Positions 4,441 through 45,020 of a DNA stretch of 64,000 nucleotides are shown one piece after another; positions within the stretch are counted from its first letter, which is position 1; each line of letters starts with the position of its first letter. Source of the DNA: Chiloscyllium plagiosum. Its lineage: Eukaryota. The stretch spans positions 15,466,710 to 15,530,709 of the forward strand of contig NC_057736.1 of NCBI RefSeq assembly GCF_004010195.1. Direction: 5' to 3'. Below the pieces are notes generated by a model that was not told where the DNA came from, ran no database searches, and worked only from the letters and a program-made list of their open reading frames with translations. The translations under genes and the position numbers were made by a program.

Positions 4441-4544
4441 TCATTGACCATCGAAAATATTGGTTATAGAGACTGAGTACATCATTGACTCTAGCCTTAT
4501 TCCCAGACTTCAAAAGTTTAAGTTGCTCTGATTTTCCATTGCAG

Positions 4545-14599: not shown

Positions 14600-14738
14600 T
14601 TAACTCTCATCTTCATTCTCTGATTCGCTATCACTCTCCTGATAAAATGAGATTGTTGCCTGCACCGGGAAATTCGCCAAGAGATGAGCTGCATCTTCGT
14701 ATAAATAATCAAACTGTTTAGATTTTGGCCACAGAAGT
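14600..14738 (-). CDS. ripply2: Ripply coding exon 4 (Ripply/Bowline homology domain, acidic tail)
   Basis: Acceptor ctttttcacag|A; encodes LLWPKSKQFDYLYEDAAHLLANFPVQATISFYQESDSESENEDES*. The four exons total 378 nt = 125 aa plus stop, with consistent phases. Confidence 0.95.
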
Positions 14739-16578
14739 CTGTGAAAAAGAAGGGAGAATAGTGTTTCAGTGTTCCACACTCTCTGATCTGGCCACATTTT
14801 CATTTCTGATGATAGGAGCTGGTAAACCAGGAGAGGTTCCTCATTAGTTGTTCTCTGTTCCATACCCTCAGACACTTTCAAGTTAAAACTCTCATCCTCA
14901 TACACACTCTCTCTTTACTGCTTCCCAGCTGCACTGAAATCCTGAGCTTCTCTGATACTGGTCCCTTGCACATTTCTCCATCTCTTCCCCCTCCCCACCT
15001 GCTATCTCCTTCTTTGTCCCACCCCAACCTTCACTCTCATGTTGCTCCTTTGTCCTTCCCTCCATCTCAGCTTTCCCTTCTCCCTGCGTCCTTCCTTCCC
15101 TCTCCCTTTTTCCCTCATTATTTCTCCCTCTGTTATATTGTTACACTATTCATAAAGAAATAGGAACAAATTGCTATGAAAATGGGCATGGAGGGTGGCA
15201 CATTTACTGTTGAACTGCGATCACGTGCTGATTAACAACTGATTAGCCTCTCAGCTGCTTGGAGAGTTGAAAGAAATATACTCAATGATGCTTTGGCATT
15301 TTGAGCCCAGAGTGTGACAGAACATATAACATTCTCTATCTGTCCCTCCTGCCTTCCCAGAATCCTTCCTTACTTCCCACCTTCCTATCTTCACTTCTTC
15401 TTGTCTAACCTTCTCTCTTTCTCACTCTCTTCCCCATCTTCCTCCATCCCTTCAACCACCTTTAGTGGCTATGATCACGTGCTCAGGAATTTCCTCACCA
15501 GATCCTTCTGTCTGTTCCTCTTACATTGTAATTCTCCTTAAAACCAGCTCTCAGATCAAACATTTGATCACCTGACCAAAGATCAGGTTTGCTGCTGTCT
15601 CTTTTGTCTCTCATTAAAGTCATTGTTCATGTTAAAAGTGCTTCTGAAATGCAGGTTACTTTTGAAAAGTGAAGGGCTGCAGATGCAGATGACTGTCACC
15701 CTTGTATGCATTTGTTTTGTCCTGAAGAAGATGAAGTGGCAGGGAAATGTTCATTTTCCACTTCAGGCTCTTATTGTCAAACTGCGCACTTTGAGTACAA
15801 CAAACTTTAAAAATATTTGCATTTAAATAGCACTTTTCACAACTTTGAGATGTCTCAAAGTGTTTATTTACATTTTTAGAGTGTGTAGCCATTGTTGCAT
15901 TGGCAGAAACATGGCAACCTGTTTATGCATTGCAAGATTTCACAAACAACAATGTAATTATAAATACAGAAAAAAGCTTCCCTCTCCCCACACTCCCAAA
16001 CTCAGAAATAACAGTCCTACTGCAGAAATTGCCCATTACAAACTGACTTGAGGATTGTTGGAATGATATTTCCAAAATATGCGTCTTGACAAAATCTTGA
16101 TCCTTCACCACATGTTTCAATTGACATTGCAAGTCAGTTCACTTGGGATGGGGCAGTTTAAACATGCCCCCATCCCTCTCCCACCAAAGCCATAGGATCG
16201 GTGGGTTTGCCCCTGACCAATACTGAAACCTTGCTGTAGTCAATCATTGAGGTCACAGCTAGATCTAACATTGCAGTTCTACTAGGATGGGCCTCACCAA
16301 GTTGATACTCAAAGCCTCAGTGTCTTAGGTCAGGCAGGAAGGGCGACTGATTGGATGAGGTACAGAGGATCAGCGTGTGTAGGCCTCATGTCCCAGTGAG
16401 AGTGTTATTCTGGTGCGGAAAGAGAGAATGTAAGGGTTTGGAATAACAAGGTCCCCTGGTCACCGAAGCCCATCATGTTTAAACTGGACACCAAATACAT
16501 GCTCATCAGATATTTATTGCTCACAGTTCCCTCCTCCTGAAAATCAGCAACACAATTAAATTCCCATGGTGTACTTAC

Positions 16579-16655
16579 TTGACCGGATGTCGAAATGCTG
16601 GGACTTTATCTCCGCTAAGTGTATGCTGAGTTCGCTCGCTCTCGGAGACATTCAG
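16579..16655 (-). CDS. ripply2: Ripply coding exon 3
   Basis: Acceptor ttctgttgcag|CTG, donor AA|gtaagt; 77 nt. Encodes LNVSESERTQHTLSGDKVPAFRHPV(K), the start of the Ripply homology domain. Confidence 0.92.
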
Positions 16656-17003
16656 CTGCAACAGAAAGGTGAGGATTTTGGGGCTGGAATAAATACCACA
16701 TTCTTTACACTAAAAACAATAAGTGCTGGAAACACTCAGCAAATCTGGCAGCATCTGTGAGGACAGAAACAGTGACTCTTTAAGGCGAATATGGTTCTTT
16801 TTCAGAACCACATTCTTCGTCTTCACTTCATAGTCTTAGAGACACCTAAGGTTCTAATACAGTGAAGATATCAATCTGGGGCAAGATACAAGTTATTGCA
16901 CACTCACACAGGGCATCACATACCCATACTGAGCAGCACACAGCCATTCTCCCTGAGTTTATGAGCTGTGTTATAAGGAGATGCCCACATGAGAGTTCCT
17001 GTT

Positions 17004-17316
17004 GGGCGGCACGGTGGCACAGTGGTTAGCACTGCTGCCTCACAGCGCCAGAGACCCGGGTTCAATTCCCGACTCAGGCGACTGACTGTGTGGAGTTTGC
17101 ACATTCTCCCCGTGTCTGCGTGGGTTTCCTCCAGGTGCTCCGGTTTCCTCCCACAGTCCAAAGATGTGCAGGTCAGGTGAATTGGCCATGCTAAATTGCC
17201 CGTAGTGTTAGGTAAAAGGGGTAAATGTAGGGGAATGGGTGGGTTGCGCTTCGGCGGGTCGGTGTGGACTTGTTGGGCCGAAGGGCCTGTTTCCACACTG
17301 TAAGTAATCTAATCTA
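17004..17316 (+). mobile_element. HE1-type tRNA-derived V-SINE (Ripply intron 2)
   Basis: A box TGGCACAGTGG, B box GGTTCAATTCC, V-domain tgtgtggagtttgcacattctccccgtgtctgcgtgggtttcctcc, (aatct)n tail. Confidence 0.88.
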
Positions 17317-17644
17317 AAAACTCATGTGTGTTTGGGATTTGAGTAGAGCTAGCAATGGGTATTGAAGGAGGAAAGAGTACCTTTCTCACAGCCACTACCT
17401 ACTGCGTAGCAGCATAGCCAGGGCTTCTAGTTAGTGCTGGTCACTGTGAACTGCAGTGTGAACAACATGAGGACTCCCACTCTTCATCACCAGGCCCATC
17501 AGCTGACAGCAGAGTCTGACTCAGCCGTGAGACCCTTTCTGGCCAAGAATCCACCAATGTTCACTATTCATTATGAAGAATTATCACTGGAGGGTGAGGC
17601 ATTTGAGGGTTGGAAGTTGTAATTGAACAACAAACAGAAAGGAA

Positions 17645-17850
17645 AATGTGTTGCTGGAACAGCATAGCAGGTCAGGCAGCATCCAGGGAACAGGAGAATC
17701 GACGTTTCGGGCATAAGCCCTTCTTCAGGAAACCCATTCCTGAAGAAGGGCTTATGCCTGAAACGTCGATTCTCCTGTTCCCTGGATGCTGCCTGACTCC
17801 AGCAACACATTTTCAGCTCTGATCTCCAGCATCTGCAGACCTCACTTTCT
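17645..17850. mobile_element. Head-to-head inverted pair of PLE-derived repeats with two hammerhead cores
   Basis: Core CTGAAGA-a-GGGC-ttat-GCCY-GAAACGTC on - (17701-17728) and on + (17740-17767); the arms are reverse complements. Confidence 0.8.
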
Positions 17851-17959
17851 CAACAAACAAAAAGACAAAACATTGGAAGAGGCCAGTGTTAAACCCAGAG
17901 TTGTGACAGCAACACACTGGTTAATGGAGAGAGAGAGAGAATTGTTGAACCAAACTTAC

Positions 17960-18035
17960 TGTTATCATCTGTCTTTGTTGTTCCCTTGCAATATCTTTGG
18001 GTGTGACTAACCATGGTCTCCAAACACTGCCGGCA
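17960..18035 (-). CDS. ripply2: Ripply coding exon 2 (WRPW Groucho/TLE-binding motif)
   Basis: Acceptor ctattaacag|T, donor ACA|gtaagt; 76 nt. Encodes (S)AGSVWRPWLVTPKDIAREQQRQMIT, with WRPW at 18011-18022. Confidence 0.9.
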
Positions 18036-18827
18036 CTGTTAATAGAAACACAACCAACTGGGTTAAGGAAGCAGGGACAGCAAGTTTGGAGAAATCAGGA
18101 CAATCAGAAGCTTGTAAACTCTACTTCAGTGTTGTCTTCCTTATTACCTCTTTATGCTCTCACGGGATGTGGGGCTTCATTGGCAATACTGGCATTTGTT
18201 TCCTGTCCCAATTTGTTCTTGAACTAAAGGGCTTGCTCAGGTATTTCAAAGGGCAGTTAAGAGTCAACCACATTTTGGTAGGTCCAGAGTCATATATAAG
18301 AGGGAGGATGGCAGACTGCCTAATGGACATTAGTGAAATGGGTGGGTTTTAAACAACAATCAATTAAATCTGTCCTTATCAATATCATGAGACAAACTTT
18401 ATAATTGCAAATTTATTAACTGAAATGAAATTCCACCATCTGCCGTGTTGGGAATTGAACCTAGCACCACCATCTTCCCCTTCAACTATCTGTTAGAGAA
18501 AGCTTGCGTGGCTGGGCTCCTAAATTATCAACACGTTCTGAGTCTGAGCTACCCCTAACCTTTGTCTGTCGCTCAGTGGGTTGCACTCTAGCCTTTGACT
18601 TGAACTCATAGGTTCAAGTCTATAACCCAGTCTGGCTCACCAAGTGGGAAGATTAAGGGAAGTCTATGCAGAGGTGCTGTTGTTTAGGTGAGATGTTATC
18701 ATTTTGCAAAGAAGCTGGAGAGTTCTTCCTGGTGTCCTGAATATTAACCAACAACACAGAGACTGAATATCTCTTCATTCTCACATTCCTGTGTCTGGAG
18801 CACGCCGTGCTTAATTTAATCTCCTAC

Positions 18828-19701
18828 AAAGTTTGTGAGAAGATTTGTAGCTCGGGTGCTCGTTGTTGTGGTTCTGTTCGCCGAGTTGGGAATTTGTGTT
18901 GCAGACGTTTCGTCCCCTGTCTAGGTGAAATCCTCAGTGTTTGGAAGCCTCCTGTGAAGCGCTTCTGTGATGTTTCCTCCTGCATTTATAGTGGTTTGTC
19001 TCTGCCGCTTCCGGTTGTCAGTTCCAGCTGTCCGTTGCAGTAGTCGGTATATTGGGTCCAGATCGATGTGCTTATTGATTGAATCTGTGGATGAGTGCCA
19101 TGCCTCTAGGAATTCCCTGGCTGTTCTCTGTTTGGCTTGTCCTATAATAGTAGTGTTGTCCCAGTTGAACTCATGTTGCTTGTCATCTGCGTGTGTGGCT
19201 ACTCAGGGTAGCTGGTCGTGTCGTTTCATGGCTAGTTGGTGTTCATGGATGCGGATCGTTAGCTGTCTTCCTGTTTGTCCTATGTAGTGTTTTGTGCAGT
19301 CCTTGCATGGGAATTTGTACAAACAGGACAAACAGGAAGACAGCTAATGATCCGCATCCATGAACACCAACTAGCCACGAGATGACACGACCAGCTATCC
19401 TTAGTAGCCACACACGCAGATGACAAGCAACATGAATTCGACTGGGACAACACTACTATTATAGGACAAGCCAAACAGAGAACAGCCAGGGAATTCCTAG
19501 AGGCATGGCACTCATCTGCAGATTCAATCAATAAGCACATCGACCTGAACCCAATATACCGACCACTGCAACGGACAGCTGGAACTGACAACCGGAAGCG
19601 GCAGAGACAAACCACTATAAATGCCGGAGGAAACATCACAGAAGCGTTCCCAAGCACTGAGGATGTCACCTAGACAGGGGACGAAACGTCTGCAACACAA
19701 A
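18828..19701. mobile_element. Penelope-like retroelement 3' remnant (GIY-YIG endonuclease) in fold-back arrangement
   Basis: The - strand encodes YKFPCKDCTKHYIGQTGRQLTIRIHEH..REFLEAW..INK. Arms 18891-19281 and 19325-19703 are inverted. 12-bp TSD ttaatctcctac at 18816-18827 and 19702-19713. Inserted in a Deu-SINE. Confidence 0.88.
19654..19693 (+). ncRNA. Minimal type I hammerhead ribozyme motif of the PLE
   Basis: gca-CTGAGGA-t-gtcacct-agac-aggggac-GAAACGTC-tgc: stem I gca/tgc, stem II, palindromic ACGU, GUC cleavage triplet. A mirror copy lies on - at 18901-18939. Confidence 0.7.
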
Positions 19702-21288
19702 TTAATCTCCTACGTTACAGAAATGAAATGATTGCATGCCAACACTACTTCTTTGGATGTAAATTGCTTTAAGTCATCCTCAGGTTTGAGAAGGCTATAG
19801 ACTACATTGACTATTCCCTTCATATCCATAAGTTGCACACATCAACAGGGCAGGCGCAATGCTTCCTCCCAGGAAGCTGTTGCTGTACACAGACACCAGC
19901 TGGAGATTGGCTCCTCATGTAAACAATGGTTTGTTGCTGATCCCCAATGAGCATAACTCTGTCTATTGGGGCTGTAACACGTCACTGGTATAGCAAACAG
20001 CATTTGTCCCATGACAGACTATTCTCTATCATATCACCAGAGTCAAACTGCTTTGTAACTTCAGTTCACTGATGGTTCAGTTGGTAAGAGCTGAGGTAAC
20101 CAGAGTAGTTAATAGGGGTTTCATGGCTTAAATCTCTGTCTGGAGTTGGAATGTTTTCCATTTGGAAGTGCTAGCACTGGATTTAGTACTCAAGAGGGAA
20201 ATCAGCCAGCTTTCCTGTTTGTTATTCTTAATTGATTCCCGCTGGATATGTCTCTGCATGTACCTTGGGTAATGACACTTACAGGAGAGATAAACATTAG
20301 TAGGCCACTGAGCCCATAGAGACTATTCTCTCACTCAGATAGTTTGTCACTATTCTGCACCTCAGCTCCATTTACCTGGTCTTGCTCCATATCCTTTGAT
20401 ACCATCCCCACAGAAACTCCAGTGGACCTCTCCCCCCAACTTTTTGAGAGTGAGGATTCCAGACAGTCCTTTTTGATTTCCCTCCTGAATAACAACTCTG
20501 GTTTTAAGATTGTTCTGGACTCCCATAGTGGTTCACATTTTGTAAAATCCTTTGATCGGGTCACCCTTCAACCGCATTAAGCTAAGGAAAATACGACGCA
20601 AGGCTATGAAACCTGACCTCTCAACGTAACCCAGGAAAGCCTGGCGTAATTCTGGTGAATTTGGATAAACTCTTTCAAGGGCAACTGAGCTGCTACCCCC
20701 ACGACTCGGAATGGGTCCCTGCAGCATCACTTGCCCCCTTTTGTACATCATCCTCTTGAGATAAGGATCATCTTTATTACTTTTGATTACTTTCTGTACC
20801 AGTGCTCGAGTTTACAGTAATGTGTAACACGCCCAACCCTCTCTGCTCCTCCAATGGTCTCTAGCCATTAAAGAAAATACCTGATTTGTTGTTATTTTAT
20901 GCTTCCATACACTGAACGCCGCCTGCCATTTTTTTTAAATTCTGCTCACTGTCTCTCTCAGGGCGCCCTGTCAACTTGGTGTCATCAGAAACTTGGACAC
21001 GAAACTCTCTTGAGTGAGGACTCCGGGAAGACGTGGGGATCCCGAGTAATTATTACATCTCACTGAACAGACTGTGTCTATATGTGTATATATACAATGT
21101 ATATATAGCACTGCTCCCAGACACCACCCACAGCTCAGAGAGAGGAACAGGAAGCTTGCAGTGGGTAACTTTGGGTTAGAGTGTTAAACTCAGCGCTGAG
21201 CCCCCATTTCATCTGCAGTTCGCTCGATGCTAGCACCCCGAAACTAAAACGCTCCCGGTTTCCCTGTCGGTGGCGCTGGGAATCCTAC

Positions 21289-21374
21289 CTCAGCCCTCCT
21301 GGCTGCTGAGCACTGGGATCGTGCAGGCAGCAGCACAGCCGGCTCCGGGCTCCTGACACTGTATTCCCCTCCAT
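21289..21374 (-). CDS. ripply2: Ripply transcriptional co-repressor, coding exon 1
   Basis: ATG at 21374; MEGNTVSGARSRLCCCLHDPSAQQPGGL plus AG|gtagga donor (phase 2) joins the WRPW exon in frame; lies in a GC/CpG-rich region. The paralog is uncertain (ripply1/2-like). Confidence 0.72.
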
Positions 21375-21960
21375 CTGGGATTGATGCCTGGGATCAATGC
21401 TGGATGTGGTGCTGATTTCCCCAGCCGCTACCGCTGCTGCTGCTCCTTTCCTGGGATCAGGTGGGAATCGGAATGACCCTGTCTGCTTCCCTGTCCTTTT
21501 TATCCAGAGCCTGGCCTCCCCGCAGACTCACTGTGGAAAGGGATAGGCTGCCAGCTGGGTGTCTTGCCCCTGCGATAAAGTCAGTGGTTGTGTCAACATT
21601 GTGGGGAGGGGGCCAAATGCTGGCCTTGGGTCGCAGCTCCAGGCCCCCCCCCCCCCCCACCCCTGCAGGAAGCAGCAGGGACAGTGTCAGGCAAAACAGA
21701 GTGCAGTCAGCAGAGAGAGAGGGGGCTGGCTCCAGTCTGTCACCCTCCTGGCATACTTTCCCACCCCGTCCATCATTAACAGGCAGCAATGAGAAGCTGT
21801 TAATCTCCCAACACCTCACAACCAGCGGGGCTGCTGCCTGCCCCCTCCCAGGCTCAGGGAGACTAGGCTGGGCACTGAGCAGTCTGAGGGTTAGCAGGAG
21901 CTGGCCTCTGTCAGGCTTTTTTGGGGCTTGGGGAAGGGTGGGGGGTATGGGGAATCAAAG
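21375..21960 (-). promoter_or_regulatory. Putative Ripply 5'UTR and promoter
   Basis: GC-rich. TATA-like GGATAAAAAGG (21495-21505, -) about 125 nt upstream of the ATG; E-boxes at 21458-21463 and 21552-21557; RBPJ-type GTGGGAA/TTCCCAC at 21461-21467 and 21758-21764; T-box half-site AGGTGTTG (21809-21816, -). Confidence 0.5.
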
Positions 21961-29960: not shown

Positions 29961-32631
29961 TGGAAGTTGATTAAAACCTTCAATGTAATGAAACATTCCA
30001 AGTTGTTTCACAGGGGAATTACAAATCAAAGTGTGACACCAAGGCATGTGTGGAAATAAACAGAATTGGTAAGTCTGATGACAAAAAGCTTGGTCAATAA
30101 ATTCAGTTTTATTGAATGTCTTAAGTGGGAGGGGAGGGAGATAGAAAGATGCAGAAGTGTAGGAAGGCGAATCCAGGTGGTGATGGACATACTGCGCTTC
30201 CTCAGAACTTTCCTTCCGGTTTTGCCCGATGACCTTGAGATTCATAAGATCAAGAGCCATAGGAACACAGGTAGGTTATTCAAACCATCGTTAGTCTGTT
30301 CCACTATTGAATGAGATCGTGGCTGATTTGATCATTCTCAACTCCATTTTCCTGCTTTTCCCCACAACCCTTGATCCCGCACAAATTAAAAATCTATCTT
30401 TCTGAATATTCTTAATGCCCCAGCCTTGATAGCCCCCTGTGGTAAAGAATTCTGCAGATTCATTATCCTATCACAGAAAAGATTCCTTCTCATCTTGGTC
30501 TTAAATGGGTGACTCCTTTTTCTAAGATTATACCTTCTTCTCCTAGACTGATCAACAAGGGGAAACAATGTCCCAACATCCACCCTATTTGGAAGCACTA
30601 GCTTTTGGAGCACTGGTCCTTCATTACAACCACCTGATGAAGGAGCAGCGCTCCAAAAGCTAGTGCTCCCAATTAAACCTGATGGACTATAACCTGGTGT
30701 TGTGTGATTTTTAACTTTACATTTACACAGTGTCATTAACATGGGAAATATCATAAGGTATTTAATCAAAGTGTTAGGCCTAACCAAAGAAAGAGGTGTT
30801 AGAAAGGCGATCTTCTGGTCCAGCGACGTCTCCATTTTAAACCTCTTATCCTTGTCTTCAAACCCTTCCATCAACCCATTCCTGAGGACTTCTGCCAGCT
30901 CTTCCAGCCTTACAACCCTTTCCCTCTCCAGTTCTGGTCTTCTGCACATCTTGGGTTTAATCAGCCAAACATTATGACCAGGCCCTTCCCTGCTTAATTT
31001 CCATCCTCTGGAATATCCTCTTCCTCAACCTCTCCCTCTTCTTATCAATTGTCCTTTAAAACTAACGTCTTGGATAATGCTTTTGGGTATTAGTCCTGAA
31101 ACTTCTGCAAGGGGTTAAGTGTCAGATTTTGTTTGATTGCCCTGAGGACATCAGGGATGTTACATAAACATGTGTTATTGTATGATGCTGAGCAGAAAGG
31201 TGTGGTGCAATCTGTCAGATTCTCAGACGGGCAGCTCACAGCAACACATAAAATCACAGGATTAAAGAGGAGCCCTTCAAGCATGCTGCACCATTTAGTA
31301 AGATTATGGTTGGGGTCTTAGCTCCACTGTCCTGTCTACATGTACCCCTCTCCCCTACTCTGTATTCCCTTGACTGTAAAAAGCTATCTAACTCCGCCTT
31401 GAATAATTGTGATGACCCAGCTTCAACCACTCTCCCAGAATTCACACTCACCCGCTCAGAGAAAAATAATCTCCTGTTCGCCAGTTTAAAAAAGAAACCC
31501 CTTAATTATAAACTGTGTTTCCCAGTTCTAGTCACCCCCCAAAAAAGGCCACATCCTTCCTGTACATACTCTGTCCAGTCTACCCCCTCCCCCCTCCACC
31601 ATCTCATGGAGTTCAATCACAGTCTTCTAAACTCGAATAGGTATCAATCCTTTAGAGGGAGATAGATTGGGGAATGTCAGTGAAGAACTATCTCTCTCAC
31701 TGACACACTGGGTAGGACAAGCCCGTTTGGGGAGGGACACAAGCTGGGGAAGTGTCATATTTGACAGTCAGTCCCACATACTCTCTGACACCTTGCTCAA
31801 CAATTTGGCTGCCAACAGACACGTGTTTATGTGCTAATATATCTCAGCCAGTTAGGAATGTGTTTGTTTTCAAATCTCCTCTCTACACCTACACAGACAC
31901 ACATACACACACACACACAGAAAGTTATGAACAGAGTGAACGGTTTCCCTGATATTCCCGATGCTTGGATCTGGTCAGACTCCTGGGCTACTCTAGAGAA
32001 GGGAACTGGAGACATCACCCAGATTGTTTCAGTCGGAGGTGTGTGTGCTATCTCCATGTCTCGTGTCACTACTCGGGACTGTTGCAAGGAATAGGGTGAT
32101 TACCATACAGCAAGTGTTAGAATCGAGAGAAAATCCAGTCCTTGATAGCCTCACCCTCAGAGAGAGAGAGACACATACACCCTGTCCGTTAAGCTGCTTA
32201 GCCACCCTCCGCAAATATTCTGTTGGATAGTTGTTCCATTTACGTAAATATTTTTTTCCGGCGAATAGCCAATGCTTTCACTGGTTTTGTCTGCACTCAT
32301 TATTTACAAACGCGAATTGAAGCCTGTGCATTAACCGGAGTCTCAGGAGGAGGGAGAGGAAACTTTTGGAAACCGTTTGCCCCCCCCCCCCTCCAATCCC
32401 ACTGCAGGGGGATTGATCATTGGGTGCTTTTGAAAATCTGTGACCCTTCCAGCCTGTGCAGCCACATCCCCATCAAACATTCCCCGAGCCAGGTACAACA
32501 TAGGTCGAATACACAGCAAAGCTCTCTATCCTGTCTCACCCAATACTCCAAGCAACAATGTGCTGTAGGACCTGCACTCGGTGCAGTTAGAGAAGCAGTG
32601 TTTTGGATGAGTTGATGTTTACAAAAACGGG

Positions 32632-32921
32632 TTAGATTAGGTCTGGAAACAGGCCCTTCGGCCCAACCAGTCCACACCGACCCTCCAAAGAGTAACCCAC
32701 CCAGACCCATTCCCCTCCCCTATATTTACCCCTGACTAACACTTTGGGTAATTTAGCACGGCCAATCCACCCTAACCCACACATATTTGGACTGTGGGAG
32801 GAAACTCAGGCAGACAAGGGGAGAATGTGCAAACTCCACACAGTCACCCGAGGTGGGACTCGAACCCAGGTCCCTGGTGCTGTGAGGCAGCAGTGCTAGC
32901 CACTGAGCCACTGTGCCGCCC
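32632..32921 (-). mobile_element. HE1-type SINE
   Basis: Reverse complement of the 17004 family. Confidence 0.85.
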
Positions 32922-34194: not shown

Positions 34195-34346
34195 GAAGAG
34201 CACAGCAGTTCAGGCAGCATCCTGATGAAGGGCTTTTGCCCGAAACGTTGATTTTACTGCTTCTCTGATGCTGCCTGAACTGCTGTGCTCTTCCAGCACC
34301 ACTAATCCAGAATCTGATTTCGAGCATCTGCAGTCATTGTTTTTAC
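34195..34346 (+). mobile_element. PLE-derived fold-back repeat with intact hammerhead core
   Basis: CTGATGA-a-GGGC-tttt-GCCC-GAAACGTT at 34222-34249 between ~27-nt inverted arms; 14-bp TSD ctgcatgtgaaatg at 34181-34194 and 34347-34360. Confidence 0.8.
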
Positions 34347-35177
34347 CTGCATGTGAAATGTCCAAAGGTAGGATAACACTCTATGGAAATATAAAATCTT
34401 TCGTTGTGTATCTTTCTTTGCTCTTTCCAACAACCAATTGTCTATAAATCACTCTGATATTTCTACAGGGGTAAGGGACAGGAAGTGTTTGGAGATGAAC
34501 AGCAAAATATTGGATCCAGCTTGCATTATTAATTAGATCAGATTTCCCTCTTGGAGTGAAATCTTATCTTTAAACCAGAATGTACACACAACGGAATTGT
34601 CTAGGAATTGGCTGTGTGCTGAGAAATCTTTATATGAATCAGGATTAATCAGGTCTAATTCAGTATAAATTTATCTGAAGCCAGTGATCAATGGTCTCTA
34701 GATGTGCTGTTGGCTCCAGCAAACTAACAATCAGAGTTAATTCTACAAGTAATATTTGACTCGAAACATTAACTCTATTTCTCTTTCCACAAATGCTGTT
34801 GGACTTGCTGAGTTTCTCCAACCTTTCTCTAAACCTCAGTATCTCTACTTCTTTATCTAAGGAGCTCTGTAAAATATGTCTCTCTGACCATGAATGTGGC
34901 CACCTGTCCTAACTTTTTTTAACACATGGTTCAACGTCAAATGTTCTTTGATAACCTTGCTGCCTTATTTCCCTGAATATATCCTGTGATACCTTTAAGT
35001 ATTGAGGCAGATTAATTTTGATTTTATTGAATGGTTTTGATCACAGCCTCTGCAGGACCTCTCCGATCATAAAAAGTGCTAACTTGCGTTCTCAATACAA
35101 GGAAAGGACTGGTTGTTGCTCCCACAGTAACCTCTGCTCCTACAGTAACCAGTGACTGGGAGGGGCAAAAGGCCTGG

Positions 35178-35262
35178 TGTCACCTACTGATGGGTTTACA
35201 CCTTCTCCCCACACTTCACCATTACCTAGAGCTTAGACCGAGCCCTTTTCACACCCAGCCAG
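35178..35262. promoter_or_regulatory. Candidate T-box enhancer block, copy 1
   Basis: Four T-half-site-like motifs: tgtcacct, tttacacct, ccacactt, tttcacaccc. Ungapped homologue at 42021-42105. Confidence 0.45.
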
Positions 35263-37485
35263 CCCACAGCCTGCTGTAGGCAGCTTTACTGAGGTCTCAG
35301 AGGGACCTACAACACACAAGCACACACACACCCATGCACACACACACATGGACTGACAAACAACCACATACACATATTCACACACTGTTGTCTTCATGAT
35401 ATTGTATTCATGAGAGGATTGAGTTAAATGGAATGGATTTGTGACTGAAAATTGTGATTTCGAAGAACAGATCCATCTCGGATTTATCCATGATCCATTT
35501 CAGAGTTGGTGATTAAGGAACCACGTGCCAAATTAATGTTATTTACATTGTGATCATGTCAGCTCTGAGTGTTATGCTACATTACGCTGACTGGTAGAGG
35601 GGTTTGAAAATCCCATGTTTGCTTCCTGTGTCAATTCCTGTGTCAATCCTGAGGCAACCAAGAGAGCATTGGTTGATGATTTGGATTGAAATGGAGTGCA
35701 GGGATATAGGGAAAAGGTAAGAGATTAGCATTGTCATCACGCTGGTGCAGTAATGATGTGTCAAATGGCCACTTTCTGCACACTCACACGTCTGTGATTC
35801 TGTGAATGTTGACTGATTTTTCAAGTTAAATTGCATGTATACAAGTTGCATATTGTCTTTCAGTCTTTTATTCTCTAATAACCTCTCTGCCTTTCTCTTG
35901 TGCCTCTGAGACTTTTTAAAATCTCATTGCTTCTCTTTTCTTCTGCACCTCTTTCTTTTCCTCTATTTTTAAATCTGTGTGGTTTTCTTTCTATCTCTTT
36001 AAATATCTCTTGTTCTGTCTTCCTCTGCCTCTGTCTGTCTCATTGTTTATTCTGGGCACATACTCTGATGTGCTATTTTAAACAATGATCCACCACTTCC
36101 TGCCTCTTGCATACTTCCAACACCTACCCAACAATTTGGCTCCAGCACTGAGCAGGAAACTCAGAGCCAGAGACTCAGTAAACACTATTATTTTCATATG
36201 TTTGTCATGTTTAGAACCCATTTGTCTTTTTGTTTTCAGTTAGTGAGAAGATGGATTACATTTTGAATAAAATCAGAGATACCAGTTGCTAGTTAATGTT
36301 GGCTATATTAGTTCTAAGTAAACTACAACAAAATGTGGAGGCCAGCAATCAATTCAGACTTATTGGACTGTGTGGATAGATACATACTAACCCCGGTACC
36401 TCTGATAGTTCAATATTCTCTCAGTACTCACGTCTTCAGATGACAATTGAATCCATTATCTTCAAACTCAGAGGTATGAGTGACCAACTGACACTTAATA
36501 GCTGAGAGCTTTGCTAAAAACAGTCGCAACACAGATGAATGACCAATTGTTCTTTTTTTTAGTTCGGAGAATTACATGCTCTTCTTCAGAGTGATGTACT
36601 TACAATGGTAAAGGAATTGGATAGTGTACATACAGAGAGTGGAACCATATAGGGGCTTGAACAGTGTGGGCTATGATGAGAAATGCAGTAGAGTTGTGTG
36701 AGAAGTGCAGCCAGGCCTATCTCAATGTTAGGAACAACTCATCATGTCTTTTAAATAAGCTGCTGGTGTTGAAGTGAGATTCTCACTAGGCAGTGGAGAG
36801 CTGCCTATTTAGTTAACAACCTTATTTCCTGCAGATCTCACCTTATTCAACTTTCTATTGTAACTTTTGCCACTAGCTTAGAGTTCTCAACGTGGAGGTC
36901 AGAGCAGGTACCTGGTAACTTTAGCTTGCTGCTTGCTCCAAAGGACCTCCATGTTGGACAGTGACATTAATATCTCAGGGCATGCTCCATTAGCAGTGAT
37001 CACATGCTACTCCACTGGCATCTGACATGTGTCAGTCTCTAGGAACTCTCATAGCACTTACAGAACATTTCTACATGAGCAACTGTCATTGTAATGCTGC
37101 GGCAAGAACACTGTGTGCTCAGGGACACACACCATGCTCATGGACTGAATTGGGCCAATATTTGGGCTGTTTGCTTCCTCTCTGACCACACAATCATTAT
37201 GAGCTTACCTGAACACTCACAGTATCCCTCCCTTGCCTTTTTGCTGCCTTGCCCCTCAGCCAGAGATACCAAACACACAGTACTGTTGTATTTCTGTGAT
37301 ATTTAGTGCAGACACAAAGCCAGGAAGCTTGTCACGGTTGTCAGCAGGCTTCAGTTAATTCAAATGGGATAGCGTTCGCTCAGGGGGTCCTGGCTCTGTA
37401 ACACAGGGCAGCCTCTGGTACCAATCCACGGCTTGGACACAGTCAGTCAGCAACTTGAGATGATCAGGGTCTTCTCTTCCATATT

Positions 37486-37696
37486 AGGAGAAAGTGAGGA
37501 CTGCAGATGGTGGAGAGTCAGAGTTGAAAAATGTGACACTGGAAAAGCACAGCAGGTCAGGCAGCATCCTGATGAAGGGCTCATGCCCAAAACATTGACT
37601 GTTCTGCTCCTCGGATTGTGCCTGACTTACTGTGCTTTTCCAGTGCTATGCTTTTCAACTCTGACTCTCCAGCATCTGCGGTCCTCACTTTCTCCT
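37486..37696. mobile_element. PLE-derived fold-back repeat with degenerate hammerhead core
   Basis: Inverted arms aggagaaagtgaggactgcagatg / catctgcggtcctcactttctcct around ctgatgaagggctcatgcccaaaac. Confidence 0.75.
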
Positions 37697-37712
37697 AATA
37701 TGGGAGAGAAGA

Positions 37713-37960
37713 TGTTGGCAGTTACATTGGTGGAGTGGAAAAGGCTGGTGACCTTCTTCCTACAGTGCTGGGCATTCTTCCGGATGGTTGAGACTGCAAT
37801 GACATGGTTGGTTATCTCAGAGGAGGCTGGCACAGTCTGATAGTGTGGCTTCCTGTGCTGGTGCTTGGACAAGAGGGTGTTACAGCTTTGCATCACGTAG
37901 TCCATCAGGACCTCCAAATCCCTGCACCCAATTTTTCCTTCGCTGCCACGGCCAGACTAA
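37713..37960 (-). mobile_element. Decayed Myb/SANT-like ORF, probably from a PIF/Harbinger transposon
   Basis: EVLMDYV..LL..EI..V.AVSTIRKNAQHCRKKVTSL resembles the Harbinger ORF2 trihelix (xQCRKKxxDL). Confidence 0.5.
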
Positions 37961-39039
37961 ATGTCAGGAATCGTGTAGAGCCATTTCAGATTTACCTCTT
38001 AGGATCTGGGTGTACAACAAGCTTTTAGCAATGGCAACAGGCCAGGGTTGCTGGTGCATTCCAGCAGTGGCAAGTTATTGTGGACATAGCAAGGGGTAGA
38101 ATGGGGCTAGAGGGTGTCATAGGGGACTGTTAGATATTTAATGAGGTAGGTTTTTTCAAGACGCATCAAGCCAACTTGTTAGGCCTCGAGGAAACTCTGC
38201 ATGAACTCAACGAAACTGACACTTAGCCAAGAAAAAGGTAAAATTGAATCGAGAGAATTGTCGTATTGTAAGGAAAATCCAGAGCATTAGGCTAAAATCT
38301 AAAATAGAGCCAGGCCATTCTGAGGTGAAATCAGGAACACATCTTCACTGAAAGACAGGCAGAAATCTGCAACTCTGTTGCCCCAAAGACAGTGGACAAT
38401 GGGGGAAGGGGATGAAAAGGGTTAATTGAAGTTTTTTAGTCTGTGAAGGATAAATTTTTGTTGGTTAAGTACATGAATTAATTTGGAACAAAGTTAATAA
38501 CATGTAGTTGTAAAATGGATCAGACTTAATCTAATTTAACAGTTAAAAAAGCTCAGGGGCTAAATTGCTTTCTCCTGTTTCTAATGCCTGATGCTCAAAT
38601 TGACCCTTAAACATTCACTTAAGCCGTAGTGAGAAGGATATAAGTGTTTAGCTAATAACTAGTTGAAAGGATATCACAGTACTTGGCATGACTTTGAGAT
38701 ATCAGATGTGATTATGTTCTCAGGTTTCTTGAGTGAGGTTTGAAAGCCCAATCTTCTAAATCAGAGGCTAAGTGCTAAATCAAGTTGTTTCTATTGAATT
38801 GTGGACTCTTACAGCTCAGAAGGAGGCTATTCAGCCTGTCATGTCTGTGCTGGTTCTCTGCAAGAATAACTTAGGCTGCCCTATTCCCTTGCCTTTTCCT
38901 GTGGCCGTTACATTTTGTTCTCCAGATAATTATCCAACTTTCTTCTGAAGACTTCAATTTAATCTGCTTCCCCCACACTTTCAGGTTGTACATTCTAGAT
39001 CCTAAACATTTCCCGTATAAGAAAACACTTACTGTAAAC

Positions 39040-41860
39040 TCTGGCCTACATGTGACTCCAGACCGACAGTAATGTGGTTGACTCTTAAATGCTTTCTGAA
39101 ATAGGTGAGCAAGCTATTCAATTGCATCAAATTTCTACATAAAAGTCAATCAGGAATAAAGCAACAGACCATCCAGCACTGACTTAGGCACCAGCATTGA
39201 CAACAGCATACATGGCTATCTTAATCCTGCAAAACCCTCCTTATTTACATTTGGGGACTTGTCTTAAAATTAGGAAAGCTGTCCCACAGATTAGCTTGAT
39301 ATAGTCATACACTCAGAATAGTACCTCACAGACAATGTTCTGGATGCCACCATCACCATTTCTGGGTACAACCTGTCCCATTGACAGGACAGACCCATTA
39401 GAAGTAGTGGTACAGAGGTGTTCAGTTGGAATGGTGTTGCCCTGAGAGTCCTCAACATTGATACTGGACCTTATGAAATCTCATGGCATCAGATCAACCA
39501 TGAGCATGGAAACCTCTTGCTGATTGCCACCTGCCACACCACCAACCCAGCTGATGAATCTGTACCCCTTTATGAAGATCACCATTTAGAAGAAGCACTG
39601 AGAGTGAATCCATCACTAGGACCGAGCCGCCTGAGTCCTAAGGGACACAACTGTGAGAATGAGCTTGCAGCAGGTAATGGGGCAACAGCAAGAGGGATAA
39701 ACCCACATCATCTCATGCTCACAAATCTACCAATTACAGATGCACTGGTCTACAACAGTGTTGGCAAGAATGACGACAGCACAGTCCTTGTGGAGACAAA
39801 ATCTTTACTTCATATTGATACGTTCTATCATGTTGCGTGATACTAACACCAGGCTAAATATGACAGACTTTGAAGATTTAACAACTCAGAACTGGGTGTC
39901 TTTGAGATACAGTGGACCATTCAGCAGCAACAGAATTGTAATGAAACACGGTCTGTAACATCATGACCCAACAAATCCCCCACTCATCTGTTTCCACCAA
40001 GCCAGGGGATCAACTCTGATTCAACAAAGAATGCAAGAGAGTATGTCGGGAGCGACACCAGCATTTGCCACAATCTTTAGTCAGAAGTGCCAAGTGAATG
40101 ATCCATCTCAGCAGCCACTGGAGGTGCCCAATATCACAAATGCCAGTCTTCTGTCAATTGGATTCATTCTACGTGATATCAAAGAATGGCTAATGTCATG
40201 AGATTTCACAAAGATGAAGAGCACCCATCATATTCTGACAATGCTCTATTTACTCTTCATTTCTGTGGGATGTGGGTATTACTGGCTGGTCAACATTTAT
40301 TGCCCGTCCCTAGTTGCCCTTAAGAAGGTAGCGGTGAGCTGCTTTCTTGAACGGCTGCAGTCTACCTGCTGTGGATTGACCCACAATGCCATTAGGGGTG
40401 GGATTCTAGGATATTGACCCAGCAACAGTCAAGGAACGGCAATATATTTCCAAGTCAGGGTGGTGAGTGACTTGGAGGGGAACTTGAAGGCAGTGGTATT
40501 CCTATGTATCAAGTGCCCTTGTCCTTCTAGATGGAAGTGGTCATGGGTTTAGAATGTGCTGTCTGAGGATCTTTGGTGAAGTTCTGTAGTGCATGTTGTA
40601 GATGGTACACACCTGCTACTGAGCATCCGTGGTCAAGGGACTGGATACTTGTGGATGTCGTGCCAAACAAATGGGCTGATTTGTCCTGGACTCTGTCAAG
40701 CTTCTTGAGTGTTGTTGGAGCTGCACCCATCCAGGCAAGTGGGAGGTATTCCATCATACTCCTGACTTGTGTCTTGTAGATGATAAACACGTTTTGAGGA
40801 ATCAGGAGGCGAGTTACTCGCCACAGTATTCCTGACCTCTGAACTGCTGTTGTAATCACTGTGTTTATATGGCAAGACCAGTTGAGTTTCTGGTCAATGG
40901 TAATCCCCAGGATATTGACAATGGTGGATTCATTGATGGTAACATTAAATATCTGGTAACATGATTGAATGTCAAGTGATGGTGGTTGGATTGTCTCTTA
41001 TTGGTGATGGCATTTGTATGGCGTGAATATTACTTGGCACTTGTCAGCCCAAGCCTGGATATTGTCCAGTCCATTTGAACATGGACTGCTTCAGTATCTG
41101 AGGAGTTGCAAATGGTGCTGAACATTGTGCAATCATCGACAAACATTCCCACTTTTGACCTTACAATGGAGGGAAGGTAATTGATGAAGCAGCTGAAGAT
41201 GGTTCGGCCTAGGACACTACCCTGAGGAGCTTCTGCAGAGATATCCTAGAGGTGAGATGACTGACCTTCAACAACCACAACCATCTTCTATGTGTCAGGT
41301 ATGACTCCAAACACTGGAGAGTTTTCCCCATTACCCACTGATTTCAGTTTTGTTAAGGGTCCTTGATGCCACACCTGTTTAAATATAGCCTTGATGTCAA
41401 GGGCTATCACTCTCACCTCACCTCTGGACTTCAGCTGTTTTGTCCATGTGCCCCTGGTGGAACCCAAACTGGGTGTCACTGAGCAAGTTATTGATAGCAC
41501 TGTCGATGACATCTTCCATCACTTTACAGGTGCTCAAAAGTAGACTGATGGGATGGTATTTGGCTGGGTTGGATTTGTCCTGCTTTTTATATACAGGACA
41601 TTCCTGGGCAATTTACCACATTGGGCAATAGTAGTGAAGAGTTGAGCTTTAGAACTTGCCATGCTCCTAACTAAGCTGTTCCAGTACAACTACAAGATTG
41701 GCATCTACCTAGCAATGTGAACAATTGCTCAGACAAGTCCTGTCCACAAGAAGTAGTTAAAATTCAATCCAGCCAATAACCAGCCTGTCAGTCTACTCTC
41801 AATCATTAGAAAATGATAGAAGGTTCTATCAACAGTGCTATCAAGTACTATTCTTTAGCA
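39040..41860. mobile_element. Old LINE (CR1/L2 group) on +, with an opposite-strand copy of the same family inserted at about 40250-41630
   Basis: RT motifs VIALDIKAIF..VWH and IYKTQVRS.MEY..LAW on -; endonuclease-region remnants on +; same family at 61540-62290. Confidence 0.65.
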
Positions 41861-42020
41861 GGAAGCTGCTCAGGGTTGAGACTGAGGTAGGTGGACAAGA
41901 TTGATTGTGCAGTTCCAATCTAAGACTATGGGTCAAGGTTTTGTGATTTGCTGACAATGCAGACATGAGTTCTCAGTATACCATCCAGCAACTGGGCATT
42001 AAGAGGTGCAAGAAAGCTTC

Positions 42021-42105
42021 TGTCACCTACTGATTGGTTTACACCTTCTTTCCACACTTCGCCATCATCCAGATTTCAGACCAAGTCTCTTTAACACCTT
42101 GCCAG
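42021..42105. promoter_or_regulatory. Candidate T-box enhancer block, copy 2
   Basis: tgtcacct, tttacacct, ccacactt and tttaacacct, with the same spacing as copy 1. Confidence 0.45.
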
Positions 42106-45020
42106 ATCCCATCCTGATGAGGGGCAGGTATACAAATAAACATTATCACAGGCAGGGATACACAAACACTCTTGTCATAGTCAGGGACATACATGAACTC
42201 ACGTACAGAAATAAGTGAACTCTCACACACCCAGGGCTGTAGAACACATTCACAAACAATAGAGAAATGAAGAAACACAGAAAGAAAGAATGCACACATA
42301 GAAACCAACACTGACACAAGGACACACACATTCACATCAACAGTGAAACATAGCAGTTCTGAAAAAGGATTCAACATTAACTCTGCTTTCTCTCCACTGA
42401 TGCTCCTATACTTGCTGAGTTTCTCAGGAAATTTCAAAATGTTTTTGACACTTATTGGGGCATGTTTTACTGAAACAAGATGGGGTTTTCAGTTGAAGCA
42501 GTTGGTTAGCCCACATTTGTTGCAAGACGTCACTTTGCTAACTTTGCATAGCACCAACTTAGTACTTGTGGTGCATGGACAGAAACATTCACACACACAT
42601 TCAAAATTGTGCTGCATTTGTGGTTTAAATTCACATTTACACTATGGATTCATTCTAATTTCCTTGTGAGGTTTAATAACTGCCAAATGAACGTGATGGT
42701 TGATGTTCCCTGCCCTGTCACCTTGTTGTATTGTTGGTTGCTGGGCATCTTGATAGTGTCAACTTTACCCCAGTTACACTCAGTAGTGGGACCCAATTAG
42801 GCGATCATAGAAACTAGCATGCAGGCAGAATACTGATGATATTGTGCTATATCCTGAGCTACCTGGTACAATGAAGCTTTATTTATCCCTGTTAACAATT
42901 GTAGTGCAGTGGAAGCATTGTTAAGAAATGAATAATGGAATTTTTAAATGATTATCCTACAGACATAATTCCTCTCTGATATGTCATGCCACTGCCTATA
43001 GGATTCCAGCTGAAATATTCCAGTTCAGAGATTTTCCACAGCTTGCCCCACTGATATTAGCTCCATGAGACCAGATTCATGTGAGAATTGAATTAGCTAA
43101 AAAAGGTTTGTGACTGAGAATAGAGAGGGACAGACCTAACCAGAATTTAACTACAATCCAGCCCAGAATCCTTCACTGAGGAGTCACCATGAATACTGCT
43201 GTTGGTCACACTGTGATCACATCAATTTTGAATGTTATTGCATATTGAGCTGACTGATAATGAAAGGACAGTGCACATTTATTGTCCACTATATATATCA
43301 ATTTCTGAGCAACTTCCAAATGAAATGAATTTACACAGTTTACTGTGTTTTTCTATTTCTGTTTATTCTGCTGCTCATCTCAGTCTCTCAGTAATTGACA
43401 TATTCTTCAATGTCTCTATCTTTGTCTCTTATTCTCACTATCTCTTTGTTGCTATCTGTAACTCTATCCGACAGTCTGCCTCTGCATCTCTCTTTCTATC
43501 TTTCATTGTTTATTCTGGACACGAGTTTTGATGTGTCATTTCTAACAGTGACCCTCTCACCTCCTCCCCCCTCACACACTCCAACACTTTCCCAACAATT
43601 TGGCTTCAACAATAGTGTTGGCGTTTGTGTTTCAGATTTGGTTTGGGCTTTTGTTGGGGACAGAACAGATAAAAGTTCCTTGTAAAAATAGTCATAGAAA
43701 TTCTCTGTCTCTTTGCAAGATGGCGCTGGAAATGGTCAACTCCTTGTGAGCTCCTGCATGCAGACCTAAGTTTCCTATTTCCTCCAATCGTTCTACATCC
43801 TTTAAACTTAATAGCATACCTGTGTTATTGTTTTTGCCGCTGTTTACCTATTATTTACTTAACTCTGTGATCTGCCTGTATTGCTCACAAGACAAAGCTT
43901 TTCACTGTGCCTTGATACATGTGACAATAAATTCAATTAAATTCAATTCAAATAGGAGCACTTGGTACTGTCTTTTAATTTTGCTTAATTTGTTTTTCCT
44001 TATGTACAAATCACATTTAGTGATGAAGTGTAAAAACATGCCAATTGCTGGACAAGCCAGCATCAAGACCAGTCCAGTTCACTTTCAGTTTTCATGGCTG
44101 TTGCATGATTCAGTAATCATATCAATCAATCAACCTTCATTAATTAGTCAAGAATGGAAGCAGATAATGGGAGAGGGAAATTTCACAGTGATGGAGATGT
44201 ATGGGAATTATATAGTACCACTCACCACCTCAGGACTTCACAAAGCACTTTGCAACTGGTGAAAGATTTTTTAAAAATGTAGTCACTTTTCTAAAGTAGA
44301 AAACTTTAGAAAATTCAGCAAACGAGTTTCACACAATAAGCTACAGAAACAGCAAATTGATAATGACCGGATTATCTGCTTTCCTTTAGGTTTGCTGAAG
44401 ATAAATATTGTCCAGGACACTGGAGAGAACTCACTCTGTTCTTTGAAAGTGTGCCATGTATCTTTCCCTGAGAGAGCAGTTGGTAGACTCTATTCAATTC
44501 TCAGCCAAAAAGATGGCACATCTGACAGTCCTTTTGGAGAATAGTCATTGTTGTAGGAGATTCAGAATCTTAGTTTGGACTTTTGTAATGATTGACACCA
44601 CACAAAATATCAGCCACAAAACTTAATCAATCCTCCAACAAAAACATTAGTTCACATTATGAGGGAATATTCATTTAAATGTCCTTCATCATTTGCTGAT
44701 TGTGATTGATTCCTGAATCACCACTAAAACCCATTTCCCTCTCTTTTTCCTGGAAACCACTGCTTTTTGATTCTAATTAACAGATTGTTGGTAGTAGTGA
44801 AATCCCAGCAACAATTCACAATGAAGTTACAATGACCTCCACCCCTGCCAGCCATGCTCTCTCAGCATCTAATGAGATAATAAACTGCTATAAAGGTCAA
44901 TGGATTTTTAGCCCCTTTAATAAAGTTTCTCATTTTCACTGACAGAGAAGATAGAGCAGTGATCCGTGTGACAGTGTATTGAATGGACTGTTGCTGAAAA
45001 GGGATTTTACTCAACACATA

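Follow-up and report, generated by a model that had tools for sequence, protein, structure and literature searches.

Two described modules come closest to the locus analysed here. Mouse Dll1-msd carries four T-box half-sites within 100 bp, some of them imperfect, including two consensus sites, together with required TCF/LEF sites (PMC7473639). The zebrafish deltaC module is bound by Ntla and Tbx16 and contains two exact and two mismatched half-sites, all of which contribute and are partly redundant; it drives expression in tailbud, PSM and somites, as shown by ChIP, EMSA and reporter assays (PMC3460241). T-box control of the ripply genes, which the earlier note on this DNA had mentioned, is published as well (PMC10102234, PMC5953544, PMC3791401). 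Tbx6 activates zebrafish ripply directly, with input to ripply1 and ripply2 (PMC10102234, PMC5953544), the mapped input of zebrafish ripply2 is an 8-kb upstream region whose Tbx6 site is probably proximal (PMC10102234), and Tbx6 input was reported for Xenopus ripply2.1/2.2 (PMC3791401). The direct wiring in zebrafish differs from the Mesp2-dependent one in mouse (PMC5953544). Furthermore, duplication underlies 18.3% of the shadow enhancer sets in fly and 33.9% in mouse (PMC13345019), hence a duplicated enhancer is in itself not unusual. A description of a shark Ripply enhancer was not found in a literature search that reached few subscription papers.

We analysed a 64-kb stretch of DNA from the shark Chiloscyllium plagiosum, called the window below, which harbors a Ripply gene and, upstream of it, a set of repeated blocks (Table 1). 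The copies of these blocks are colinear and co-oriented, and their T-box-like sites are kept better than the surrounding bases. Judged from sequence, it is reasonably likely that they represent a locally duplicated candidate enhancer of the Tbx6 type, which would act on Ripply and carries Sox/Fox-like sites in addition.

Like Dll1-msd and the deltaC module, block A clusters four half-sites including mismatched ones, and the eight letters of the Dll1-msd site BS1 are identical to the site in copy 1 of block C and to the proximal site 21809 (PMC7473639). Among the eight block A sites only the one at 42092 is a perfect AGGTGTBR (0/4 in copy 1, 1/4 in copy 2), in contrast to two consensus sites in each published module. 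Unlike Dll1-msd, the shark copies revealed no TCF/LEF site, and they are duplicated, which the accessible part of PMC7473639 does not report for the mouse module. The deltaC module serves another target gene and was characterized experimentally, whereas the shark module is a candidate predicted from sequence. With the zebrafish and Xenopus ripply systems the locus shares the gene family and the proposed feedback loop, but in contrast to zebrafish ripply2 the shark modules are situated 10-22 kb out and are duplicated. The homology of the enhancer bodies of nearby elements and the kept binding-site content resemble shadow enhancers born by duplication (PMC13345019); shadow status requires overlapping activity on one gene, whereas the shark pair displays the duplication signature only.

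Table 1. Positions of the repeated blocks, the Ripply gene and a proximal T-box half-site in the window.
Feature	Position	Strand	Remarks
Block A copy 1	35149..35281	-	four co-oriented T-box-like half-sites: 35178, 35196, 35209, 35249
Block A copy 2	41985..42124	-	four co-oriented T-box-like half-sites: 42021, 42039, 42052, 42092
Block B copy 1	35383..35600		133/209 positions match between the copies; lowest nhmmer tile E-value 4e-15
Block B copy 2	43052..43263		
Block C copy 1	36012..36159		T-box site 36118 (minus); Sox-/Fox-like sites 36041, 36044, 36081, 36130
Block C copy 2	43469..43623		T-box-like site 43582 (minus); Sox/Fox-like sites as in copy 1
C0, third, partial copy of block C	31735..31817		orientation as other copies; perfect T-box site 31786
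Ripply gene, presumed target	14600..21374	-	Pfam Ripply PF14998, E 1e-19
Ripply coding exons	21374-21289, 18035-17960, 16655-16579, 14738-14600	-	
Candidate proximal T-box half-site	21809..21816	-	perfect match, 435 nt upstream of start codon

The Ripply gene and the repeated module

Ripply had been named as the neighbouring gene, which is borne out by the PF14998 match and by the C. plagiosum ripply1-like protein P0002, the exact product of one GT-AG set of four exons. Among 12 protein matches to this gene, seven are named ripply1-like, four ripply2-like and none ripply3, while one is unnamed; the Atlas clusters carry the automatic name ripply2. Further relatives comprise coelacanth ripply2 and one unnamed fragment only, too few for a tree. 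It is conceivable, but doubtful, that the shark gene is a paralogue, on the T1R-linked chromosome, that does not correspond to any of the three Ripply genes of mammals. The two copies of block A are located 13,804 and 20,647 nt from the start codon at 21374, in line with the approximately 14 and 21 kb estimated before. The proximal half-site at 21809 exists as a single copy.

The repeated unit consists of three blocks, A, B and C, with identities of 74, 64 and 77%, which occur within the 64-kb window in two, two and three copies, respectively, all co-oriented. The copies of block A are identical at 99 of 133 positions. Within them, 35178-35262 and 42021-42105 align gap-free with 68/85 identical bases (37/40 over the first three sites), exactly as counted in the earlier note, and a BLASTN E-value of 2e-15 within the window places the pair beyond chance. 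The four motifs are present in both copies and all co-oriented on the minus strand, as described there. Two of the four sites in each copy match the Xbra consensus TVWCACCH exactly (taken from PMC3791401; AGGTGTBR is from PMC7473639). Copy 2 contains an extra T-box site on the opposite strand at 42004, which is absent from copy 1. The site spacings are indeed equal in both copies, but the values of 17, 14 and 38 nt have to be replaced by in-register distances (5' base to 5' base) of 18, 13 and 40 nt, because the low coordinates had been measured on motifs of unequal length. These distances do not fit a Tbx1-type arrangement, which needs directly abutting half-sites (8-nt period); TBX1 gave no shift of a lone half-site (PMC4010391). 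A Brachyury palindromic site, i.e. abutting inverted half-sites, is likewise absent, since the four common block A sites are co-oriented. A weight matrix gives its two highest scores in the window to the block A copies, but as it was written after the sites had been seen, this does not count as independent evidence.

The further colinear homology noticed before is real and slightly longer than claimed, with block B covering 35383-35600 and 43052-43263 and block C 36012-36159 and 43475-43623. Block B is the least conserved of the three and lacks a T-box site common to both copies. The distance from A to B is approximately 0.7 kb greater in copy 2, where the spacer includes a repeat fragment (42350-42448). 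Block C, with 104 of 135 bases identical between copies 1 and 2, contributes a fifth common T-box site as well as the Sox-like and Fox-like sites common to both full copies. This contribution had been overlooked, as had the partial copy C0, which was detected with an nhmmer E-value of 6e-6 versus 0.59 for the best reversed-window control and is identical to the two full copies at 56/88 and 59/89 positions. The T-box site of block C is retained in all three copies, and a 13-nt stretch is invariant across them (31798, 36129, 43593). No TCF/LEF, RBPJ or E-box (Mesp) partner sites common to the copies were found. Remnants of A and B beside C0, or aligned flanks, were not detected above the null. 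The only strong match in this search was between 37531-37696 and 34185-34348, two copies of a repeat unrelated to the blocks. The duplication may be a tandem one, as described before, but the sequences flanking the copies do not align. The possibility that A and C are ancient paralogues of one another was rejected as not significant.

Retention of T-box sites between the copies

The argument for function is carried by the T-box sites rather than by the blocks as such. Within its gap-free stretch, the copies of block A agree at 30 of 32 site bases and at 60 of 90 others (p 0.0015 in a Fisher test, p 0.002 with random placement). This conservation above background holds between paralogous copies within one genome; both substitutions in site 4 exchange T-box-compatible letters. 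If one mismatch is allowed, AGGTGTBR has five sites common to the copies and is the sole top scorer among 4096 motifs of equal shape. Five common sites were reached by none of 1500 column-permuted motifs, 3000 column shuffles or 5000 neutral-decay simulations, and all 16 repeat-pair controls had zero or one common T-box site. By these counts the T-box motif is the one best retained between the copies.

However, several controls weaken the signal. The rank of the motif varies with its shape: over the nine shapes used, the motifs that tie or beat the T-box number 1/4096, 11/4096, 44/4096, 14/4096, 22/1024, 1/256, 49/256, 9/4000 and 53/4000, and some motif with five common sites also exists in one of 16 repeat pairs. 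Four co-oriented sites that deviate from AGGTGTBR by no more than one base lie within 79 nt in each block A copy and nowhere else in the window, a density in keeping with the Tbx6-type presomitic enhancers (Dll1-msd, Mesp2-P/E, the deltaC module), where about four half-sites are gathered in 100-300 bp. However, 43 of 300 simulated windows of 64 kb contain such a cluster, so that its rarity alone is weak evidence. Gap-free runs of at least 79 nt are found in 9/16 repeat pairs of the window, and the identical spacing can therefore not be used as evidence for a site grammar; tests of the longest run were not significant (p 0.2-0.4). Similarly, the statement that these blocks stayed best conserved does not hold. 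With 64-77% identity the blocks are unexceptional among the old repeat pairs of the window, which span 59-88%, hence their survival is no proof of selection. Block A is 74% identical against 77% for block C, and only its 40-nt core stands out (permutation p 0.02 for the best 40 nt, with 0/20 repeat pairs at p <=0.05).

Proposed function

From the earlier proposal of a T-box enhancer pair for Ripply, the gene identity, the best-retained T-box motif and the published T-box control persist, while a spacing grammar and a Tbx1-type arrangement are not supported. We propose an ancient local duplication of a cis-regulatory module of approximately 1 kb (A-B-C) upstream of shark Ripply, with probably two copying events for block C. 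T-box monomers, with Tbx6 in the anterior presomitic mesoderm as the most likely candidate, would bind the block C site and the four half-sites in block A, which would be of moderate affinity, the occupancy being set by site number and not by fixed spacing. Block C may attract HMG-box (Sox-like) and forkhead factors that assist the T-box activation of Ripply, and the Ripply protein would then remove Tbx6, by which the known negative feedback loop would be closed. Both copies would still be under selection and could act additively or redundantly.

A more far-reaching version, in which all three copies are active as an array of segmentation enhancers for Ripply and their divergence from one another footprints a T-box plus Sox/Fox code that has kept no Mesp E-box, Notch or Wnt site, is doubtful. 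If true, a direct, Mesp-independent activation of Ripply by Tbx6, zebrafish-like and unlike mouse, would be the ancestral wiring of jawed vertebrates. Cartilaginous fish are the outgroup for deciding whether the direct wiring of zebrafish or the Mesp2-dependent wiring of mouse is older, and the modules, if active, would offer site-resolved test constructs for the Tbx6-Ripply somite-boundary loop in this group. Moreover, the paralogous copies are a clean example of footprinting inside one genome. Nothing would be overturned by these results, as duplication is an established source of enhancers and Ripply an established target of T-box control.

Alternative explanations

It is unlikely that A-B-C represents an old dispersed repeat missing from the catalogues (such as a decayed LTR pair or a non-autonomous element) inserted two to three times, whose T-box-like sites are cargo and were possibly co-opted later. 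The window is rich in repeats, the identity of A-B-C equals that of the old ones among them, and the homology ends sharply without alignable flanks. Furthermore, copy 1 of block C contains an imperfect inverted repeat (36040-36088), and palindromes are frequent in small transposons. Direct repeats 6.8 kb apart have the geometry of an LTR pair, and mouse LTRs can supply Tbx6 sites (PMC5471307). However, A and B have no additional copy within 64 kb, and the three copies of C share one orientation over 11.9 kb (p ~0.02, random placement), whereas other repeat families here occur on both strands. The interior of an LTR element was not found between the copies: among 103 frames of at least 33 codons, RVT_1 matched three, integrase, protease, RNase H and gag families matched none, and all other matches were sub-threshold and unrelated. 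A tRNA-like head was not found either. The repeat ends are too decayed to place, so that the terminal features of LTRs (TG..CA ends, primer-binding site, polypurine tract) speak neither for nor against this reading; a TATA or plus-strand poly(A) signal common to both repeats was not detected. Finally, neutral decay would not be expected to leave cargo sites better conserved than their flanks.

Improbable, too, is a local duplication that did copy a T-box enhancer but of whose products one or neither still works, the other decaying and the shared sites reflecting constraint in one lineage plus chance. Such a decay would fit with copy 1 of block A, which has no perfect site and scores below copy 2, with the loss of A and B at C0, and with a conservation signal that depends on 32 site bases. 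Nevertheless, neutral change at the observed rates keeps at least five of the six copy-1 sites in only 34 of 5000 simulations, and one neutral lineage by itself would erode sites at close to that simulated rate.

There is very little to recommend the reading that the blocks are exon duplicates from a transcript, whether coding or non-coding, or that block C encodes a structured RNA, for instance a microRNA precursor. A plus-strand stop-free frame spans block A in equal phase in both copies, but the block was rejected as a coding exon, since its mismatches are spread evenly over codon positions (9/12/11), it has no Pfam match and no relative was found among 1.84 billion proteins. None of the blocks matches Pfam or Rfam, and the four folds of block A are no better than shuffles (z -0.13 to 0.45). 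Block C has a minus-strand AATAAA common to its copies. Both of its full copies also retain a hairpin of 14 pairs, in which one compatible change is double-sided and three are one-sided, with a fold z of -2.75 in copy 1. In copy 2, however, the hairpin is weak (z -1.2); it also contains a large internal loop and misses its outer arm in C0, and only one of eight folds is below z -2. At gathering score the window contains no Rfam family, and no tRNA was found; six weak E-value matches to Rfam in 31000-44500 all lie outside blocks A-C.

Enhancers are able to skip the nearest promoter, and short exons would escape frame scans, but it is equally hard to credit that the modules serve a different gene as T-box enhancers, be it one past position 64000 or the T1R gene located behind Ripply. 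The nearest detected promoter is that of Ripply, a known T-box target, and no further protein-coding gene was detected upstream of it within the window: of the 164 long stop-free frames past 22 kb, the 140 scanned gave matches to reverse transcriptase only, and the remaining 24 overlap multi-copy repeats.

Duplicated blocks upstream of the Ripply gene

The gene downstream of the blocks is a Ripply gene (Pfam PF14998 match), and a single set of GT-AG exons reproduces the Chiloscyllium plagiosum ripply1-like with every letter identical. Since the names of the 12 shark orthologues in the database are mixed (seven ripply1-like, four ripply2-like, one unnamed, none ripply3), its assignment to a paralogue is ambiguous. 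Measured from the start codon, the two copies of block A are 13,804 nt and 20,647 nt upstream.

Three colinear blocks, A, B and C, make up the homology between the two full copies, with identities of 99/133, 133/209 and 104/135, respectively; the overall identity falls inside the span of old repeats (59-88%). The spacer between A and B is approximately 0.7 kb longer in copy 2. The flanks outside the blocks gave no alignment beating reversed-sequence nulls; hence, copy 1 of the demonstrable repeated unit measures approximately 1.0 kb and copy 2 approximately 1.6 kb. That the copies are arranged in tandem we infer from their proximity and orientation.

The earlier note had proposed a duplicated shadow T-box enhancer pair for Ripply, with four half-sites at identical spacing. 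We confirm its observation, with minor corrections and an extension: block C, which has a T-box site of its own and a third copy. The gap-free match of the two block-A stretches holds as counted (68/85 identical, 37/40 across the first three sites), and the four sites are present in both copies on the minus strand, but their spacings in register are 18, 13 and 40 nt instead of 17, 14 and 38 nt.

Coordinates of the features in the window
Feature	Position	Strand	Remark
Ripply coding exons	21374-21289, 18035-17960, 16655-16579, 14738-14600	minus	match to C. plagiosum ripply1-like
T1R taste-receptor gene	4470-12315	plus	tail to tail with Ripply
Perfect T-box half-site	21809-21816		435 nt upstream of the Ripply start codon; candidate proximal site
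Block A, copies 1 and 2	35149-35281; 41985-42124		gap-free stretches 35178-35262; 42021-42105
Block A 8-base sites, both copies		minus	AGGTGACA, AGGTGTAA, AAGTGTGG
Block A fourth site		minus	GGGTGTGA in copy 1, AGGTGTTA in copy 2
Block B, copies 1 and 2	35383-35600; 43052-43263
Block C, copies 1 and 2 (C1, C2)	36012-36159; 43469-43623
Block C, third, partial copy (C0)	31735-31817		co-oriented
T-box-like site in C0, C1, C2	31786; 36118; 43582	minus	perfect in C0
Sox-like/forkhead-like overlap in C1, C2	36041/36044; 43504/43507
Inverted repeat in C1, C2	36040-36088; 43503-43551		arms in C1: 36040-36049 with 36079-36088
Fragment pair, Ripply intron 1	18958-19669	opposite	near-identical; probably an inverted retroelement pair
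Minisatellite	24006-24230		61-nt unit, 3.7 copies, 2.6 kb upstream of Ripply
Palindromic multi-copy repeats	34185-34335; 37470-37712; 17640-17850		first two: weak microRNA-family matches, far under gathering scores
LINE-type debris	39385-41900		between the two copies; RVT_1 matches in three frames
Mutually inverted copies	41436-41631; 41705-41902		within the LINE-type debris
Presumed LINE endonuclease	39385-39837		resemblance by eye; no Pfam match
Presumed decayed Gypsy-type coding sequence	52600-54900		resemblance by eye; no Pfam match
T-box sites in 58780-59840	58786, 59830; 59228-59333		two perfect; three weaker

Retention of T-box sites

The argument for the T-box reading that survives is the differential retention of the sites. 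Identical spacing says little, because gap-free runs of at least 79 nt are common in repeat pairs of similar age (9/16). The cluster itself is weak evidence, as four co-oriented one-mismatch sites within 79 nt arise in 43 of 300 order-3 Markov windows; in the real window, four-site clusters of this length occur at the two block-A places only. In the gap-free stretch, 30/32 site bases are identical, compared to 60/90 for the remainder (p 0.0015 in the Fisher test and 0.002 with random placement).

The pattern AGGTGTBR is consistent with the Tbx6 consensus. Taken from PMC7473639, it combines the core AGGTGT with G, C or T at position 7 and with the G or A that the two bound sites of that study have at position 8. 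A count of the sites that the two copies share at matching places in the alignment, taken over all three blocks, gave five for this pattern (four in A, one in C), the sole maximum among 4096 motifs of the same shape, with Sox-like motifs as runners-up. Five shared sites were reached by none of 1500 column-permuted motifs, 3000 column shuffles or 5000 simulations of neutral decay that used random segments of the window, and all 16 repeat-pair controls had 0 or 1 shared T-box site. Neutral decay started from copy 1 kept at least five of its six sites in 34/5000 cases, and one of the 16 repeat pairs had some motif with five shared sites. The rank of the T-box motif is weaker under other motif shapes; over the nine shapes, the motifs tying or beating it were 1/4096, 11/4096, 44/4096, 14/4096, 22/1024, 1/256, 49/256, 9/4000 and 53/4000. 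The 40-nt core is conserved beyond permutation expectation (p 0.02; 0/20 repeat pairs at 0.05 or below), but longest-run statistics were not significant.

Block C and its third copy

Searching the window with a profile built from C1 and C2 detected C0 (E 6e-6; best E in the reversed window 0.59). Profiles of A and of B gave a third copy of neither in the window, and a remnant of neither was found beside C0. The identities are 56/88 between C0 and C1, 59/89 between C0 and C2, and 68/103 between C1 and C2, which suggests an earlier duplication. All three copies keep a T-box-like site 12-13 nt from a Sox-like AACAAT, itself within a 13-nt stretch invariant in all of them. C1 and C2 also have in common a Sox-like site that overlaps a forkhead-like one; both motif names in block C are presumptive.

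The imperfect inverted repeat of block C, whose arms are two of the Sox-like sites, has a predicted 14-pair fold in both full copies with one double-sided change, a kept-pair count that is favoured by the joint use of the two sequences in the prediction. The fold z was -2.75 for copy 1 and -1.2 for copy 2, with one of eight folds below -2. The copy-1 hairpin beats 509/509 GC-matched 62-nt tiles, a comparison biased by the choice of its own window, and the inner stem is visible in C0 too. Palindromic sites, a small transposon or an RNA hairpin are candidates for its origin; we do not treat it as an RNA gene.

A candidate Ripply enhancer and its alternatives

One of the eight block-A sites is a perfect AGGTGTBR and seven have one mismatch; four match exactly the Xbra consensus TVWCACCH (PMC3791401). 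Copy-2 site 4 and both full C copies carry T at position 7, which, according to PMC7473639, is tolerated by Tbx6 and poorly by Brachyury, and therefore leans slightly towards Tbx6. The Brachyury palindrome is absent from the blocks, and a pattern search found no E-box, RBPJ or TCF/LEF motif common to both copies. TBX1 prefers abutting tandem half-sites and left a lone half-site unbound (PMC4010391); the tandem arrangement is absent from the blocks.

Of the enhancer pair proposed for Ripply, duplication, position and site retention stand, and identical spacing as an argument and the Tbx1-type arrangement fall away. The proposal is partly supported, and the blocks are well-motivated candidates for a Tbx6-type enhancer of Ripply in duplicate. 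In published work, zebrafish ripply is activated directly by Tbx6, mouse Ripply2 needs Mesp2 as well, and Ripply removes Tbx6 (PMC5953544, PMC10102234); T-box factors bind near the Xenopus ripply2 genes (PMC3791401), and presomitic expression can be driven by half-sites clustered in fours, some of them mismatched (PMC7473639, PMC3460241). Shark block A resembles these latter modules as such a cluster, here at the level of sequence. We somewhat favour the reading that the modules would act as shark Ripply enhancers of this four-half-site, presomitic type, in which the occupancy of moderate T-box sites would add up, Sox/Fox-type partners would assist and both full copies would be active. No account of a shark Ripply enhancer was found in the literature searched, which covered subscription journals thinly.

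It is unlikely that A-B-C represents an ancient dispersed repeat or a pair of LTRs. The sharp ends of the homology, the repeat-like identity of the copies, the palindrome in block C and a precedent of LTR-borne Tbx6 sites (PMC5471307) would fit such an origin, but the three copies are co-oriented inside 11.9 kb (p about 0.02), LTR-type domains occur in 0/103 frames between the copies, and retention is biased to the sites. Less likely still is one live copy beside a dead one, and that the blocks are a transcript or structured RNA, or act on another target gene, is in either case very improbable.

Neighbourhood and further features

The T1R gene has its top match at 81% (Pristiophorus), and none of the 120 matches listed is a close record from bamboo shark. 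In each of Rhincodon, Hemiscyllium and Hemitrygon, the longest contig has an identical length for Ripply and for a T1R record. The DVL1/MXRA8 neighbourhood is not known to be that of any human RIPPLY gene, so the shark Ripply beside T1R may be a separate Ripply paralogue. That DVL1 and MXRA8 flank the TAS1R cluster is stated in PMC10781636. Upstream of Ripply, from 22 kb of the window onwards, a Pfam scan of 140 of the 164 stop-free frames of at least 65 codons, omitting 24 that overlap multi-copy repeats, gave reverse transcriptase only (three frames); short exons could escape such a scan. The stretch at 58780-59840 has no self-BLAST match and a CpG ratio that no other part of the window exceeds (0.52, measured over 59001-60000), and is a candidate for a further regulatory region.
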